DNA from: an uncultured Candidatus Saccharibacteria bacterium
Lineage (GTDB): Bacteria; Patescibacteriota; Minisyncoccia; Minisyncoccales; PEYH01
Assembly: GCA_964616145.1 (NCBI GenBank)
Contig: CAZTRD010000003.1
Coordinates: 5,892 to 69,891 of the forward strand
Direction: 5' to 3'
Length of the DNA stretch: 64,000 nt
The notes below the pieces were generated by a model. It did no database searches, had not been told where the DNA came from, and saw nothing but the letters and a program-made list of their open reading frames with translations. A program made the position numbers and the translations under genes. Below are positions 4,470 to 52,262 of this stretch, piece after piece; within the stretch, counting starts at the first letter, position 1; each line of letters starts with the position of its first letter.

Positions 4470-4582
4470 TAATTATCAAGAGAGACGGTGAGAGATTTGG
4501 CTCTGCGATCCGCCCAGCAACCCTTAAAGTCGACTGCTTTAAGAAGGTGCTAAATCCAAACCCATAAGGGAAAGATAAAAGG
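4470..4582 (+). promoter_or_regulatory. SAM-I (S-box) riboswitch aptamer
   Basis: UUAUCAAGAGAGACGGUGAGAGAUUUGGCUCUGCGAUCCGCCCAGCAACC ... AAGGUGCUAAAUCC ... CCCAUAAGGGAAAGAUAA matches the S-box core (AUCAAGAG, GGC..GAU..CC.GCAACC, GGUGCUAAAUCC). P1 pairs UUAUC 4473-4477 with GAUAA 4574-4578. Confidence 0.8.
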
Positions 4583-4633: not shown

Positions 4634-5059
4634 ATGAACTCAAAAGAATATAAGAATACAGTAAATAAAGATGTTAGATATACCTTTATTCCCAAATGCC
4701 TGAGATTAGAAGGATTATCGGAATATAATAACATGCCATTTAATGTTATGTTCCAAGAATTCATTACTGAAAATGACAATCTTCTTTCGGCAACTGCGAT
4801 ATACGAACCAAGCTTCTCAACATTCAAAACAGAGGGAAATATCTGTTCAATGATGTACAGAAACGCATATGGCAATGATTCATGGCTGAAAATCTCCTAC
4901 GATAACAATGAAAATATTTGGCATGGATCAAAAATAGTTGACGGCAAATGCATAGGAAAAGCATTTGGCGCTAATTGGAAAATGTTTTTTATCCATTTTA
5001 CAACTTTAGGATTATCTAATGGAGAAAAATGCAAACTAGAAAAATTGTTAATAAATTAA
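4634..5059 (+). CDS. Uncharacterised 141-aa soluble protein directly controlled by the SAM-I riboswitch
   Basis: Its ATG lies immediately after the riboswitch SD hairpin. The ORF is uninterrupted, with no family motif recognised and no TM segment. Confidence 0.6.
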   Translation: MNSKEYKNTVNKDVRYTFIPKCLRLEGLSEYNNMPFNVMFQEFITENDNLLSATAIYEPSFSTFKTEGNICSMMYRNAYGNDSWLKISYDNNENIWHGSKIVDGKCIGKAFGANWKMFFIHFTTLGLSNGEKCKLEKLLIN

Positions 5060-8128: not shown

Positions 8129-8644
8129 GTGATGGGAGAGAAGAAGGAGCACTTCGACGCTGTAACCTTGGCTTTCGTAGCCATCGCCATCGCCTGTGCC
8201 ATCTTCGGCAGTCTGGCCGCAGGGCTTATCCCTGCCAGAGAAGCGGGATTCGCCCTACTATCGTGGGCTGCTACTGGTCACGTGATCACGCTGATCTGCG
8301 TCATCATCCAACACGAGACCAACGCAGCTGTCGTACTCTTCGTCTTCATGGGCTTCTGGATCTGCGCTGGACTGGGTCTCAGCTTCTTGTCATCGCATGG
8401 ACTGCACAGGCTTCTGATGGTGATCGAGCCCACGCTGCTGGCTATCACCTTCCTGTGGCAGTTCTTGTACCGGAACAAGCGACAGCTGAGGTGCGTTCTC
8501 CTAGGCTTGGCCTGGGTAATCCTATGGCTCTTTGTCTCCAAGTTCATTCCCCAGTTAGGCGTGATGACGCCATACTGGGTGTGGGCTCTGGGCCTCTATC
8601 TGCTTCTATTGGCATTCTGGCGAAGACTGCACCCGGCAGGATAG
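8129..8644 (+). CDS. High-GC cassette A: 171-aa polytopic (about 6 TM) membrane protein, no recognised family
   Basis: GC jumps to ~55 % (hand count). AAGGAGGA lies 7 nt before ATG 8132 (GTG 8129 in the track). Codon third positions are G/C-rich. Six hydrophobic stretches are present (e.g. VTLAFVAIAIACAIFGSLAAGLI, AAVVLFVFMGFWICAGLGLSFL). Confidence 0.7.
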   Translation: MMGEKKEHFDAVTLAFVAIAIACAIFGSLAAGLIPAREAGFALLSWAATGHVITLICVIIQHETNAAVVLFVFMGFWICAGLGLSFLSSHGLHRLLMVIEPTLLAITFLWQFLYRNKRQLRCVLLGLAWVILWLFVSKFIPQLGVMTPYWVWALGLYLLLLAFWRRLHPAG

Positions 8645-8666
8645 AGGCACGATGATGCTCAACAAT

Positions 8667-47155: not shown

Positions 47156-48067
47156 ATGAAACAATCTGCAATAATAGCCGTATTGTTTTGGTCAATTATG
47201 GGGGTTATAATTTGTATTTCCATTTTATCAACATCTAGTGTTATTGCCGATACTGACACTGCCAATACATTAACGGAAATAGGAAATGCGACTCCAACTG
47301 TTGTTATTAATAGCGTAACTGGTCCAATAACGCTACTTGAAAATGGACATACGGCAATTGCTTGGGCAACAAGTACAGTAACTGATAATAATGGATGTGA
47401 CGAAGTAGATTTTGCAACATCTGTCGTCGCTGTTTTTTACGACAGCGCTGCAGTAGCAACAAGTTGCTCTTCCAATGGAAGAAATTGTTATCCAAGTGCA
47501 AGTACAACGTGTGCTGTAAGCGCGGGTGATACTTGCGATGGCGTAGGAGATACCAGCGTCGAATGGTCTTGCTATGTTAATCCATGGCATTACGCTAACG
47601 ATGCTGCTACTTGGAAATGGTATATAGCGGCATCTGATGCTGCTAATACGGGATCTAGTACGAGCGATACAGTTACTGTAAATCCTTTGCTTGCTCTTGA
47701 TGTAACAGAGGGTACAATAGATTATGGAACTTTGGCTCTAAATACATTATCTGCGCAAAGCACAACAACTGTTGTCAATACTGGTAATGATACAGCAATG
47801 GATGTGGGTATCAAAGAAAGTGCTGCTTTCACTTGCACTTTAGGAAACATAACCTCTACCTATCAGCATTATTCTCAATCAGGTGGATTCTCATATGGAG
47901 ATGGAACTGTATTATGGTCAACCAGCACGCAATCATTGAATGCAGACATAGCTCAGGGTGAAAATGGAAGCGAAACTCCTTCTGAAGCTGTTTACTGGTT
48001 GTTGACTACTCCTGCTGATGGCGTATCTGGATCTTGCAGTGGTACAAACTATTTTGAAGCTCAATAA
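47156..48067 (+). CDS. Secreted Thr/Ser/Ala-rich, Cys-containing surface protein
   Basis: Signal peptide (AIIAVLFWSIMGVIICISILSTSSVIA/DT). Composition is beta-rich. The C-terminal 'EAVYWLLTTPADG' is reminiscent of the WxL-domain end motif (weak). Confidence 0.55.
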   Translation: MKQSAIIAVLFWSIMGVIICISILSTSSVIADTDTANTLTEIGNATPTVVINSVTGPITLLENGHTAIAWATSTVTDNNGCDEVDFATSVVAVFYDSAAVATSCSSNGRNCYPSASTTCAVSAGDTCDGVGDTSVEWSCYVNPWHYANDAATWKWYIAASDAANTGSSTSDTVTVNPLLALDVTEGTIDYGTLALNTLSAQSTTTVVNTGNDTAMDVGIKESAAFTCTLGNITSTYQHYSQSGGFSYGDGTVLWSTSTQSLNADIAQGENGSETPSEAVYWLLTTPADGVSGSCSGTNYFEAQ

Positions 48068-48100
48068 ATCCTGTTTGTGTAAATAGATTTAATATTTAGT

Positions 48101-49081
48101 ATGAAATCTTTGTTTGATCGTTTTGCAAAATATATTATTTTTCTGTCTGTAATTTTTTTTGTATTTCCTTTAATCACTAGGGCCGGTTTTGGTTTGTCTC
48201 CGGGGAATATAAATATCAATAATGCTTTAAGGGGATCATCTTTTGAAAAAGTTTTTGTAATTTCAAGATCTGACCCTGTGGGGAATTTAATAGTAACAGT
48301 AGAACCGCTCGGAGATACTGCCGAATGGTTTCAATTTGACAGGGGAAACAAATTTACATATCCGGAAGGAGAAAAACAATTTCCGATAAAATCTGTTGTA
48401 ACTATTCCGGGAGGAACTCCCAATGGTACATATACCGGAAAGATACGATTCTCTGGATCCATGGATACCACGGGCAATACCGAGGGAGCAAGCGTCGGGA
48501 TTACTATGGGAGCATTAGCTGATATCAGCGTCACTGTTACGGATAAAGAGATTAAGGGATTCAGATTAATTGGCTTACAAGCTGAAAAAGCGGTTGAGGG
48601 AGAACCTTTGGTTCTGTCTCTCACTTTGGAAAATACCGGTAATGTGGATATCCAGCCCAGCTATATCATTGCAGAGCTTTTTGACAAATTCTATAAACTA
48701 CAATTAGCTACATTCAGGGTTTCTAAATTCAATGGATCAGTCAAGGTAGCAAGCTCTGGAAAAGTTTTAGCTACGGTACCATGGACAATTCCGGACGCAG
48801 GAAATTATTGGGCTGAGGTTTCTATCTTCGGCGATCAAAATCAATTAGTAGCAAAAGAGAAGTTACCGTTTGATGCAGTTGCTGGGACGGGATTATTGGC
48901 ATTTGTTGATAAAAACTCTGCAATATATTTCATAATGGGAGGGGTAATAATCTTTTTAATAATCATAATTGTTATTTTTGCCATACTTTTGATCAATACA
49001 AGAAATAAACAAACAAAAGAATTAGCAGAGATGACCAAACATTTAATGAAGTTGGTGAAAAACAAAAATGGAAGAAAATAG
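48101..49081 (+). CDS. Surface protein with N-terminal signal peptide, CARDB/DUF11-like beta domains and C-terminal TM anchor
   Basis: Signal 'IIFLSVIFFVFPLITRA'. 'PLVLSLTLENTGNVDIQPSYI' is a CARDB-like strand pattern. The C-terminal 'IYFIMGGVIIFLIIIIVIFAILLINTRNKQ' is a TM anchor with a basic tail. Confidence 0.55.
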   Translation: MKSLFDRFAKYIIFLSVIFFVFPLITRAGFGLSPGNININNALRGSSFEKVFVISRSDPVGNLIVTVEPLGDTAEWFQFDRGNKFTYPEGEKQFPIKSVVTIPGGTPNGTYTGKIRFSGSMDTTGNTEGASVGITMGALADISVTVTDKEIKGFRLIGLQAEKAVEGEPLVLSLTLENTGNVDIQPSYIIAELFDKFYKLQLATFRVSKFNGSVKVASSGKVLATVPWTIPDAGNYWAEVSIFGDQNQLVAKEKLPFDAVAGTGLLAFVDKNSAIYFIMGGVIIFLIIIIVIFAILLINTRNKQTKELAEMTKHLMKLVKNKNGRK

Positions 49082-50950
49082 TAAAAAAAAAATTGTTTAA
49101 TTCTTTTATTTTTATTCTTTTTTATAGGAATATCTTTTGTTAAAGCGGATAGCGATACGACAAATACCTCAGCACAGGTTATAGATATAACAGGACCAGT
49201 AATTAGTAATATAAGTTCAACTATATTAAGCAATAGTTCTGTTTCTGTTACCTGGACTACTAATGAACTAAGCACTTCTGTTGTTGATTATGGAAAGACC
49301 ACGGCTTTGGGGTCAACCGAGAGCGATCTTTTATTAGTAACCTCTCATTCTGTTACATTAAACGATCTATCTAGCGGCACAACTTACTATTACAGAGTAA
49401 GCAGCGCTGATTTGTCTGGAAACAGTACTACGGATAACAATGGCGGCAATTTCTACGCCTTTACAACTCCGTCTAATAATTTTATTCCTCCACCGAGCAG
49501 TGGAGTATCTACTCCTAAAATTTTAGAAATAGACGAGAGCAAAATACTTTTAAATAATAATTCTGAATTTACTAAAGGCCTGATGATAGAGATTATTTTA
49601 AATCTAACAAATGTAAGCAAATTCAAGATAGGGAACAGTAATAATTTAAATAGCGAAACTTGGCAAGAATTTGTACCGAAAACTTCTAAAAAGATCTCTG
49701 AGGAGGATGGAAAGAAATCAATATATTTTCAATTCCAAAACGATGAGGGATTAGCTAGCAATGTGATAGAGAAAACTATTGTCTTAGATACAAGCCCTCC
49801 ATCCGCTCCTACTAATCTAAATGTGAAATATGTAGAAAATTATGTAGAAACCAGTTTTCAGAAGCCAAGCGATGGAGATATTGCCGGATACAGATTATTT
49901 AAAAGCACTTCTGGTTTTGTTTACAATCCGTTAGGTAATGAGCAGATAATTTTAGATGGCAAAGCCGAAAGCACAATAGATAGAGATATAAGATCCGGGA
50001 GAAAATATTATTATTCCGTATTCTCCTATGACTATGTCAGAAATTATTCATCTCCAGCCGTAGCAGAGATTATCATTCCTCCATATGCATCGGAAGGAGA
50101 AGAAATAATATCTACTGATAAAGGCATAAAAACTTTTGAGTTGGAACCGCAAAAACAAAATCTGAAAATAGAAATAGGGGATAAGCTGGAAGATCTTTCT
50201 ATTTCTCAGAAAAGTTTTCATTATCTAGAAAATTCTCCAATCAATATTACTATTCCAGAAAATAGTTTTCTAAGAGATTCTGACGCTTTGGTATTAAAAG
50301 TAGGGGCAGAATTGTTGTATGGCCTGCAAAGGATAGAACATGTCTGGACTGCCAAAATCGATGTTCCCGGGAAACAAACAAGCTATCTTTTAACGCTGGA
50401 GGTGATTAGAAAAGATGGCACTAAGGAAATAATAGAATTGGGGCAAGTATTAGTAGATCCTTTTGGATATGTATACCAGGATGTAATAGAGCCGCATTTA
50501 AATTTATTCAAGGATGGGTTTTGGTCCTGGGAAAAAGCTCACAAACAAAACAGATTAGAGAAGGTAAAAGTATTTCTGTATCAATACAATGATTCATTAA
50601 AAGATTGGCAGCTCTTTGAGGCTAGCAGATATGGACAGAAAAACCCTCAGATTACGACCAAAGAAGGGGCTTACGGATTCCTTGTTCCCGAAGGGTCATA
50701 TTATCTTGAAGCCATTAAGATTGGTTTTGGGGAAAAAACAACAGAGTCATTTGAGATACGGGATCAAATAGTAAATAAAGATATTGAATTATCATCTATC
50801 ACCATTCATTGGTGGCAGGTAGATGAGAATAGGGAAGTTATTCTATTAATTATTCTTCCTATTGTTGCAATAATTGCTATAATAATTATAAAGGCAATAA
50901 AAAAACGCAGAAAAGTTAAAATTGTCTATGATGGTTTCTCAATTAAATAG
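49068..50950 (+). CDS. Large FN3-domain surface protein with C-terminal TM anchor; start separated from the body by a frameshift in the A10 tract
   Basis: The frame of 49307-50950 is open back to 49085. It reads KKNCLILLFLFFFIGISFVKA/DSDTT (signal-peptide h- and c-regions) but has no start codon. ATG 49068 (GGTGA 9 nt upstream) reads MEENSKKKIV* in another frame. One extra A, or two fewer, in the A10 tract joins them. FN3-like 'VSVTWTTNELSTSVVDYGKTTALG...TTYYYRVSSADLSGN'. C-terminal anchor 'VILLIILPIVAIIAIIIIKAIKKRRK'. Confidence 0.6.
49083..49092 (+). repeat. A10 homopolymer at the 5' end of the FN3 surface-protein gene
   Basis: Ten consecutive A residues lie between ATG 49068 (MEENSKKK...) and the long downstream frame that opens at 49085. 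Confidence 0.9.
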
Positions 50951-52250
50951 AAAATCTATTGCCTGGTTTATCGCTGGAATAATATTTCTGGTTTTTGCGT
51001 TTGCTGGTTTTTCAAAAGCGCAGACAACTCCCGGTTTGCAGATTTTGTTATCAGGAAAATTGATTGATGCGGAAGGAACAACAGAGCAGACAGGAAAATT
51101 CAATATAAGTTTTGCCCTGTATGAAACCGCATCTTCTACTGATAACATATGGAGTGAAGTTTTCAGCGGAGATAACAAAGTAATAGTTGAAAATGGTATT
51201 TTTCAGGTAAGTTTAGGATTGCAGAATCCTTTTAATGTTGATTTTGAAAACAACACATATCTTTTAGGGGTAAGCATTGGGGGAACAAGCGATGTTCCTC
51301 AATGGGATCAAGAAATGACCCCTCGTATTCAAGTAACTACTTTAAAAAATCTTTTATTCTCTGGAAAAATAATAATGACAGAGGAAGAATTGGTAAATGC
51401 TTTGATTGAAGAATTTAAGAATAATACATCAAGCACAGATAAATTGACTCAAACAGCTTTCATTAATTTCTTAAAACAAAAACTTGCTCAGGCCGGAACA
51501 AGCGCTGTTATCATTTCTCCCAATACTATCAGCCTACTATTAGAACAAGTGTTAAAAATACAAGAAGATTATGAACAAAGCCTAGAAAAACAAACTTTCT
51601 GGCAATCATTGTTAAATTTCTTTACAAAGATATTTGACGCTATTGCTGAAAAATTAGGAAAAATATCTGATAAGATAACTGAGATATTTTACAGATTAGA
51701 TACCATAGATCGGGGAATTTCAAAGATTATTAATATTCTTGAAAACCAGAACCCCCAGTCAGCAAGTCTTGCTCCAACAATTTTGCCAACCGTTGATCAA
51801 CAATCAAGCATTAATTATGATGCAAATTTCTTAGTCAAAGATCTCGGGAAAATCATACTTAGAACTGGAGAAACAACTATTAGAGTATTTTCTCAATACA
51901 TTACAGAAAATACTAAAATATTTGTATTACCAATAGAAGAAATACAAGATATTTGGTGGATATCTGACAGAAAAATAGGTGAGTATTTTGAAATATCTAT
52001 TACTCAATCTCAGGGCCAAGATTTGGATTTTGAATATTGGATAATAGTTCCTAAAAACGAACTACCTCAGGAGATAATAATCATTCCTGAAACGCCAACC
52101 CCGGAAATAATTCCTACAGAATCTGCGGTTGAGCCCCCAGTAGTAGAAGAAACACCACAAGAAATACCAATAGAAAGCGTTGAAAACCCGCCAGTAGAAG
52201 AACTTCCCGAATCAATTCCAGAAATTGAGGAAGCAGCAAACCCGCTCTAG
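50922..52250 (+). CDS. Secreted protein with C-terminal Pro/Glu-rich repeats
   Basis: Signal peptide 'IAWFIAGIIFLVFAFAGFSKA/QT'. The C-terminal 'PETPTPEIIPTESAVEPPVVEETPQEIPIESVENPPVEELPESIPEIEE' is low-complexity. No family recognised. Confidence 0.55.
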   Translation: MSMMVSQLNRKSIAWFIAGIIFLVFAFAGFSKAQTTPGLQILLSGKLIDAEGTTEQTGKFNISFALYETASSTDNIWSEVFSGDNKVIVENGIFQVSLGLQNPFNVDFENNTYLLGVSIGGTSDVPQWDQEMTPRIQVTTLKNLLFSGKIIMTEEELVNALIEEFKNNTSSTDKLTQTAFINFLKQKLAQAGTSAVIISPNTISLLLEQVLKIQEDYEQSLEKQTFWQSLLNFFTKIFDAIAEKLGKISDKITEIFYRLDTIDRGISKIINILENQNPQSASLAPTILPTVDQQSSINYDANFLVKDLGKIILRTGETTIRVFSQYITENTKIFVLPIEEIQDIWWISDRKIGEYFEISITQSQGQDLDFEYWIIVPKNELPQEIIIIPETPTPEIIPTESAVEPPVVEETPQEIPIESVENPPVEELPESIPEIEEAANPL

Positions 52251-52262
52251 CGGGTTTTTTGA
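52238..52262 (+). terminator. Intrinsic terminator ending the surface-protein cluster
   Basis: AAACCCGC-ucua-GCGGGUUU stem followed by UUUUUG. The stop codon lies in the loop. Confidence 0.8.

Follow-up and report, generated by a model that had tools for sequence, protein, structure and literature searches.

How can a gene be expressed when its start codon and its body lie in different reading frames? The question is raised by a gene encoding an envelope protein with a fibronectin type III (FN3) domain in contig CAZTRD010000003.1 (assembly GCA_964616145.1), within the stretch of 64,000 nucleotides that was analysed here and is referred to as the window. In this gene, a run of ten adenines (A10) separates the ATG at 49068 from the long frame that encodes the protein. 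From comparison of the DNA of related loci, it appears moderately probable that the run is a retained recoding (slippage) site acting at the RNA level, when transcriptional and ribosomal slippage are taken together. Taken separately, slippage of the RNA polymerase as the main route falls a little short of an even chance, and slippage of the ribosome as the main route is rather unlikely. That slippage occurs, at which of the two levels, and for what purpose, we infer from sequence.

Three elements define the problem:

49068 to 49100, + strand: leader open reading frame (ORF), zero frame, with its stop codon at 49098-49100 (read from the sequence).

49083 to 49092, + strand: A10 run, the proposed slippage site, exactly 10 bases long and the same in the two other assemblies of this strain (L028 and L029).

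49085 to 50950, + strand: body reading frame, 621 sense codons followed by a stop at 50948-50950 (from the translation and from the ratio of nonsynonymous to synonymous substitution, dN/dS).

After its ATG, the leader reads GAA GAA AAT AGT AAA AAA AAA ATT GTT TAA and encodes MEENSKKKIV followed by a stop. The body frame lies at -1 relative to the frame of ATG 49068, and one extra A is needed to join the two. At its 5' end the body frame is shut by TAG 49079-49081 (the stop codon of the upstream gene) and TAA 49082-49084, and the first ATG, GTG or TTG within it is TTG 49307. These readings agree with the initial annotation, in which the A10 run was said to part the start codon from the frame of the large protein, and that frame to be open from 49085 without a start codon of its own. 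It was also stated there that 11 or 8 A's would fuse the frames into a signal peptide with four lysines. The fusion stands, and the lysine count has been amended: 11 A's give MEENSKKK-NCLILLF (three lysines) and 8 A's give MEENSKK-NCLILLF. The predicted slipped product is 627 aa long and begins with MEENSKKKNCLILLFLFFFIGISFVKA, followed by DSDTT.

ATG 49068 is likely the true initiation codon of the envelope-protein gene, since the frameshifted orthologues described below possess ATG-started leaders and their in-frame relatives start at the equivalent place. A weak Shine-Dalgarno-like sequence, GGTGA, is located at 49054-49058, 5' of this ATG. The stop codon of the upstream 326-aa gene (TAG 49079-49081) sits inside the leader ORF, and the leader ATG overlaps the 3' end of that gene, which suggests translational coupling.

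A protein search for relatives yielded a handful of full-length orthologues, whose gene calls were N-terminally short; their 5' ends were then read from the DNA, and the resulting table of runs and frames was confirmed by a script. More distant members were obtained by a profile search of 1.84 billion representative proteins, again with gene calls devoid of proper signal peptides. The nearest relatives are labelled Candidatus Pacebacteria or Paceibacterota, i.e. candidate phyla radiation (CPR) members. A readable 5' end was available for six lineages, the window included, which share 37-79% protein identity and are phylogenetically related. Among the assemblies, L032 and L033 are one contig, and L003 and L021 possibly come from one sample. 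A further lineage, of 61% identity (L002 / P0003), was left out, as its contig begins inside the gene. The frameshifted loci are the following:

Window, L028 and L029 (window; ERZ27248937; ERZ27248895): leader MEENSKKKIV and stop; A10; +1 A restores the frame.

L001, L004, L020 and L032 (GCA_028717625.1; JAQTNP01; Ga0265297; GCA_041653375.1): leader MERKSKKKF or MGTKSKKKF and stop; A9; +1 A.

L003 and L021 (SRR9617926; Ga0315289), 57% identity: leader MEKNLSQNLKKKLS and stop; A9; +1 A.

L034, 44% identity to the window: leader MNSGREIKLKRCKKKV and stop; A9; +1 A.

L035, 38% identity to the window: leader MKAILKKKRIIRDL and stop; A10; +1 A.

L036, 37% identity to the window: leader MDFSKKKIFISSS and stop; A10; -1 A or +2 A.

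Three more distant relatives whose DNA was read are in frame and possess an ordinary signal peptide:

L030: begins MRNDKKVNYNFWFLL; run of A6.

L037: begins MTTSKQKLLLL; no run.

L038: begins MNVGIKTKITII; run interrupted, AAAACAAAAA (K-T-K).

An uninterrupted A9 or A10 is thus found at the same place, with the body out of frame, in six of six lineages, and it is never shorter than nine. The change needed to restore the frame is +1 A in five of them and -1 A or +2 A in one (L036). All frameshifted orthologues have an ATG-started leader of 4-12 codons, in which the A run starts at a codon boundary, and in all six lineages unslipped ribosomes would stop 1-6 codons past the run, as determined by the script. 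A comparison with related genomes had been suggested in the initial annotation as a check, and its outcome is that the out-of-frame A9 or A10 recurs in five other lineages.

When leader and body are fused, a canonical signal peptide is obtained in each of the six lineages, arranged as in the in-frame relatives, namely Met, then a few residues, lysines in a cluster, a hydrophobic core and A/[D/N/E]-x-T-T, in which the slash marks the cleavage point (e.g. MEENSKKKNCLILLFLFFFIGISFVKA/DS and MERKSKKKILILAFLIFFTGISFVSA/ND). The in-frame relatives begin at the equivalent place with M-x(2-5)-K-x-K, followed by the hydrophobic core. Seven further family representatives have intact N-termini. Among the family members examined, those with an uninterrupted run of at least nine are out of frame, and those without such a run are in frame. 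L038, which clusters with the frameshifted loci in a distance tree and shows an ATGA overlap with its upstream gene (L038 2501-2530), may represent a lineage that escaped, or never gained, the slippery run.

The body gene is functional and under purifying selection. Its dN/dS ranges from 0.09 to 0.19 between lineages (with a synonymous divergence, dS, of 1.4-2.5, at which synonymous sites are saturated) and from 0.10 to 0.13 among close strains. Conservation extends to the approximately 75 codons that separate the run from the first canonical start, and half of the FN3 domain falls among them; translation must therefore enter at or before the run. A pseudogene is ruled out by these between-lineage ratios and by the intact 620-codon frames, with one exception, a nonsense codon in L004. 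This is a TAC-to-TAG change at approximately position 2750 of that locus (body codon 537), inside the invariant motif YYLEAIKIGFG, on a contig of a metagenome-assembled genome (MAG) for which coverage is 2.9x, and the change is due either to an error in sequencing or to recent loss of the gene's function in that strain.

The A10 run is also exceptional in its surroundings, being the sole homopolymer longer than 8 within the 64-kb window. Compared with an analytic expectation from first-order composition, runs of at least nine A's are scarce in the window (1 seen versus 9.4 expected), as are those of at least eight (3 versus 23). Although 72% of the lysine codons in the window's genes are AAA, none of the 16 other Lys-Lys-Lys triplets in these genes is encoded by AAA-AAA-AAA (6.0 expected, P = 5e-4). 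Likewise, 0 of 12 such triplets in the neighbouring genes of the related loci are encoded in this way (5.2 expected) and, when both sets are pooled, 0 of 28 (approximately 11 expected). At the slippage site itself, the all-AAA form occurs in six of six lineages (Fisher P = 1.3e-5, with the lineages treated as independent). All other A8/T8 runs in the window fall inside intact ORFs. Judging by these counts, selection against slippery A runs in genes is in force in these genomes, and the single exception lies exactly at the frame break. Such avoidance suggests that these organisms pay a real price for slippage on A runs. A back-mutation by +1 A is expected to be common, A runs are purged elsewhere and no in-frame allele was seen, which together suggest that the out-of-frame state is favoured.

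In the proposed scheme, ATG 49068 is where translation would initiate, probably in coupling with termination on the upstream gene. On an unslipped mRNA the ribosome would make the 10-residue MEENSKKKIV alone. The 10-base run matches the length of the RNA:DNA hybrid (roughly 9 bp), in which the nascent RNA could re-pair one base back without a mismatch; the RNA polymerase would slip back on the run and produce a fraction of transcripts with one extra A. The slipped mRNA would be read through as AAA AAA AAA AAT TGT..., yielding the 627-aa precursor MEENSKKKNCLILLF...VKA/DS..., in which a normal Sec signal peptide is followed by an all-beta ectodomain that contains FN3 and, at the C-terminus, by a membrane anchor. 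The identical protein would result if the ribosome slipped by -1 on A AAA AAA, and such slips may contribute. Overall, the site would act as a throttle, i.e. set a low, possibly condition-dependent output relative to the co-transcribed operon neighbours of 303, 326 and 440 aa.

The locus resembles bacterial A/T-run slippage sites in having a run of at least nine, an ORF overlap that can be fused, and a conserved offset together with purifying selection. Insertions predominate in A/T runs, and they increase exponentially as the run lengthens (PMC5574713). In bacteria, slippage occurs on runs of 9 A or T, with mRNAs gaining several extra bases (PMC5009743), and the A11 run in tssM1 of Citrobacter rodentium gives mRNAs with 10-15 A's (PMC4256274). 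No lineage has a run shorter than nine, as the hybrid-length rule of polymerase slippage would predict; that +1 A is needed in most of them agrees with transcriptional slippage, in which insertions prevail; and a spread of mRNA run lengths would serve L036 too (-1 or +2 A). The slippage reading also follows from the weakness of sequencing error, initiation in the body frame and read-through, which are unlikely or excluded (see below). Slippage had been listed in the initial annotation as one of several options, with no choice made among them; the comparative evidence now favours the RNA-level form.

Several points weigh against this reading. The DNA consensus alone cannot distinguish RNA-level slippage from a DNA switch with the OFF state predominant, since it fits both. 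L036 needs the opposite shift, and such a mixture of states is what phase variation predicts. The lineages are related, and some assemblies are not independent. Slippage by the RNA polymerase of Paceibacterota is extrapolated from other bacteria, and ribosomes slid weakly on A9 and A10 when tested in a cell-free system from E. coli (PMC4363877). The throttle may be adaptive or may simply be tolerated. A bolder claim, which we regard as unlikely, would be that in an epibiotic CPR bacterium selection actively maintains the locus as a non-genetic switch of expression, and that this switch has persisted for a very long time throughout a Paceibacterota clade whose genomes otherwise purge such runs. 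If it were so, the share of transcripts or ribosomes that slip would depend on nucleotide pools, the supply of lysyl-tRNA or the state of growth, and production of a conserved envelope protein, whose gene neighbours those for the cell wall and division, would be confined to a tuned share of the molecules or cells.

The strongest rival is phase variation at the DNA level, in which slipped-strand mispairing would flip the tract between A10 (OFF) and A11 (ON), a minority of cells would express the protein and the consensus would show the OFF length. We consider this possible, with a chance well below even. The setting is suitable, i.e. a homopolymer in the 5' coding region of a surface-protein gene of an AT-rich, small-genome bacterium, and there is a close precedent in vaa of Mycoplasma hominis (PMC524362). 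Furthermore, states one base short of ON in five lineages and one base beyond it in L036 are expected from length change over evolution. However, no in-frame (ON) allele occurs among the consensus sequences of approximately 10 independent assemblies from 6 lineages, although a low-frequency ON subpopulation would not show in a consensus. The tract is A9 in all four strains of the L001/L004/L020/L032 lineage, which are 79% identical to the window and separated from each other by a dS of 0.05-0.13, and A10 in all three assemblies of the window strain, which come from different samples. The strong purifying selection on the body is also unlike the diversifying pattern usual for contingency genes. 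Of the hallmarks of a contingency locus, a repeat in the 5' coding region is present, and tract lengths that differ among close strains, including ON alleles, are not seen. The description of the tract in the initial annotation as a classic phase-variation mechanism is therefore not supported by the visible data, in which there is no in-frame allele and tract lengths are uniform among close strains.

The other rival to transcriptional slippage leaves the mRNA unchanged and places the event wholly in translation, as a -1 programmed ribosomal frameshift on A AAA AAA or as sliding of the ribosome along poly(A). Five lineages have a zero frame of AAA AAA AAA, a perfect X XXY YYZ site, and need a -1 shift, and the A AAA AAA heptamer stands in the ATG frame in all lineages, as confirmed by the script. 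Iterated AAA codons make ribosomes slip (PMC4363877), and the product would be identical to that of a transcript with one extra A. The stimulators expected of such a site were not found, though. No downstream stem-loop or pseudoknot is predicted in any lineage folded: the 80 nucleotides after the run, folded in four lineages, gave z-scores of -0.44 to +0.49 and no shared helix, the wider context, folded in two lineages, gave energies no better than those of shuffled sequences, and Rfam at gathering thresholds returned no match at the slippage site. Neither is a conserved Shine-Dalgarno-like element visible upstream; GGTGA 49054-49058 was considered as an upstream stimulator and rejected, being present in the window and not conserved in L001 or L003. 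In addition, L036 needs +1 rather than -1, the run is always at least nine although seven would do for the heptamer, and the weak sliding on A9 and A10 in the E. coli system also counts against this route.

Apart from phase variation and RNA-level slippage, all other explanations are improbable even jointly. The least weak of them, which we hold to be very doubtful, is that translation starts at a non-canonical codon inside the body frame (ATT 49100 or another near-cognate codon) and that the ATG leader is irrelevant. An ATT (Ile) codon does occur early in the hydrophobic core in the window, L001 and L003, and the A-rich stretch upstream could aid ribosome binding, but no near-cognate codon is conserved across the six lineages. 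A signal peptide starting from ATT 49100 would be without a charged n-region, and in the in-frame relatives the homologous ATG serves as the start. The basic n-region of L035 (KKKNYQRFVR) is encoded in the body frame directly after the run, and translation must therefore enter at or before the run.

Slightly less probable still is an error of sequencing or assembly, with a true tract of A11 and an ordinary gene. Homopolymers are the classic site of indel errors, and one relative, L004, is a MAG of 2.9x coverage that also carries the suspicious nonsense codon. Against this, A10 is common to three assemblies of the window strain, i.e. that of the window and two made with MEGAHIT (ERZ27248937 and ERZ27248895), and the arrangement recurs in NCBI MAGs, JGI metagenomes, and ENA and Logan assemblies from different assemblers. 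The shifts needed differ in direction, as five lineages call for +1 A and one for -1 A or +2 A, and the A8/T8 runs elsewhere in the window are all in intact ORFs. Contig names indicate MEGAHIT or SPAdes, implying short reads, and we judge consensus errors at A10 in short-read data to be rare. The assembly error that the initial annotation had put on an equal footing with the other options is thus very unlikely, as A10 is found in three assemblies and the same arrangement in five other lineages. Finally, stop-codon read-through fusing the upstream protein to the body, which could appeal to the common frame of the two in the window, L001 and L003 and to an upstream stop TAA that consists of T and the first two A's of the run, is barely credible and can be taken as excluded by the two tandem stops (TAG TAA) in the window and the earlier end of the upstream gene in L034, L035 and L036 (at an ATGA overlap with the leader ATG), and what follows the run is a cleavable signal peptide, not a linker.

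With RNA-level slippage retained as the favoured reading, the encoded protein and its neighbourhood can be described. The relevant features are:

49094 to 49147, + strand: hydrophobic core and c-region of the signal peptide (CLILLFLFFFIGISFVKA), from reading of the translation.

49205 to 49408, + strand: first FN3 domain, also the Pur_ac_phosph_N match (Pfam, P0001 sequence).

50837 to 50890, + strand: C-terminal transmembrane anchor (VILLIILPIVAIIAIIII), from the translation; the basic tail KAIKKRRK comes next.

48101 to 49081, + strand: cluster gene upstream of the FN3 gene; its 326-aa product carries a signal peptide at the N-terminus and a membrane anchor at the C-terminus (ORF list and translation).

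50928 to 52250, + strand: cluster gene downstream of the FN3 gene, whose 3' end it overlaps; it encodes 440 aa, including a signal peptide.

The signal peptide is predicted, by inspection and homology, to be of the Sec type and to be cleaved after Ala, between 49147 and 49148; the A/[DNE]-x-T-T motif at the cleavage site aligns in all family members. The body segment between this point and TTG 49307 (49148-49306) encodes, among others, the peptide DSDTTNTSAQVIDITGPVISNISSTILSNSSVSVTWTTNELSTSVVDYGK, whereas the residues at the leader-body junction would be lost with the signal peptide. Residues 41-109 match the Pfam families fn3 (PF00041; 27.3 bits, cut-off 25) and Pur_ac_phosph_N (PF16656; 31.1 bits, cut-off 30). 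The three attributes given to the long frame in the initial annotation are hence all upheld: FN3 by matches above the Pfam gathering thresholds, the signal peptide by its position in the -1 frame and a layout matching that of the in-frame relatives, and the C-terminal anchor by a hydrophobic segment followed by KKRRK in the translation. FN3 was the sole Pfam/NCBIfam match in the protein, the 303-aa and 440-aa neighbours had no match in these databases, and a search of PDB sequences returned none. An AlphaFold2 model, built on a 5-sequence alignment, was poor (pLDDT 61, pTM 0.30) and indicates only all-beta modules and a C-terminal helix; this helix, at P0001 residues 507-536 of the low-confidence model, coincides with the C-terminal anchor.

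The gene belongs to a four-gene cluster (47156-52250, + strand) encoding exported or membrane-anchored proteins of 303, 326, 627 and 440 aa, which is closed by a terminator-like hairpin at 52238-52257, after the 440-aa gene. In the window, which has a G+C content of approximately 35%, the cluster is flanked by a Wzy_C-type gene and by murD-ftsW-murG, with MurD, FtsW, MurG and GltX encoded just downstream. Relatives with identities as low as approximately 30% retain the four genes in this order, the flanking genes differ in the more distant ones, and the counterpart of the upstream 326-aa gene is conserved in all related loci. The cluster lies directly upstream of murD-ftsW-murG in the window and in the closer relatives, and dosage control of the FN3 protein may bear on cell-surface biology, which matters in organisms dependent on host attachment.

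The frame break also affects the public annotation of these genes. All six calls of the frameshifted orthologues (P0001, P0002, P0004, P0076, P0080 and P0081) begin at an internal TTG or GTG, and most lack the signal peptide entirely, P0080 retaining part of the hydrophobic core. P0001, which starts at TTG 49307, P0002 and P0004 also miss half of the first FN3 domain. Such wrong gene calls mislead predictions of the localisation and function of this envelope protein. In L037, at 1055-1123, the gene caller likewise chose a late TTG, whereas a complete signal peptide is obtained from in-frame ATGs at 1055 and 1064; the start is simply miscalled, and there is no frameshift.

Several observations were made elsewhere in the window. 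A SAM riboswitch (Rfam RF00162, 55 bits, full-length match) is located at 4470-4581 on the + strand and precedes a 141-aa ORF (4634-5059) with no Pfam match. At 8129-8655 (+ strand), two largely overlapping ORFs in different frames encode 171 and 130 aa; both have GTG starts and no Pfam match, and the pair is preceded by a 360-nucleotide gap. No tRNA genes were detected across the 64-kb window (1-64000).

The locus can be compared with four kinds of known systems. In vaa of M. hominis, a poly-A tract at the 5' end is ON with 8 A's and OFF with 7 or 9 (PMC524362). In both cases the genome is small and AT-rich, a surface-protein gene carries poly-A in its 5' end, and tracts that miss the in-frame length by one base are OFF; in vaa, however, ON alleles (A8) are readily observed and isolates vary, whereas here no ON allele was seen and close strains share the OFF length. 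With dnaX of E. coli and with insertion sequence (IS) elements, the locus shares a heptamer of lysine codons (A AAA AAA/G) and a -1 shift (in five lineages here), and it differs from them in having no downstream hairpin, no conserved upstream Shine-Dalgarno-like element, one lineage that needs +1, and a run of at least nine.

Programmed transcriptional slippage is known from mxiE and spa13 of Shigella flexneri and from tssM of C. rodentium and Yersinia (PMC4256274; PMC5009743), and in tssM the change of the A11 run to 10-15 A's was shown by mass spectrometry of cDNA (PMC4256274). In all of these, as here, an A or T run joins overlapping ORFs with no RNA structure or Shine-Dalgarno stimulator, and the functional long product requires non-templated bases, which would likewise be the case in the scheme proposed above. 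The two products of tssM, like those of spa13, are of considerable size, and tssM requires both of its own; here, translation without slippage would give a peptide of 10 residues, for which no role is evident. Here, moreover, the host is a CPR bacterium and the target a Sec-exported envelope protein, unlike in mxiE, spa13 and tssM. A literature search returned no report of transcriptional slippage or homopolymer frameshifts in Patescibacteria. The mechanism is therefore of a known kind and apparently undescribed in CPR bacteria and, if the reading is correct, this would be the first conserved recoding site found to be described for Patescibacteria/CPR.

The closest parallel is provided by Buchnera and Blochmannia, in which poly(A) frameshifts are rescued by transcriptional slippage, with approximately 30% full-length transcripts (PMC3017870; PMC5009743). 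There too, in reduced genomes of high AT content, the gain or loss of one base in an A run of at least nine breaks the frame, and populations and species share the break while the gene does not decay. In those symbionts the full-length product arises from a mixed mRNA pool, which for the present locus is proposed from sequence alone. Blochmannia genomes hold 114-153 coding tracts of at least nine A's, and the frameshifts are viewed as damage tolerated under drift (PMC3017870). Unlike in Blochmannia, long A runs are otherwise purged here and a single site is kept, over a divergence reaching down to 37% identity; and unlike in both symbionts, the site is at codons 6-9, in the n-region of the signal peptide. 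The purging of runs elsewhere, the deep conservation of one site and its position in the n-region argue for selection rather than tolerance. If this is true, a frameshift together with the slippage that corrects it would be kept by selection in free-living or epibiotic reduced genomes, beyond the tolerance seen in bottlenecked endosymbionts.

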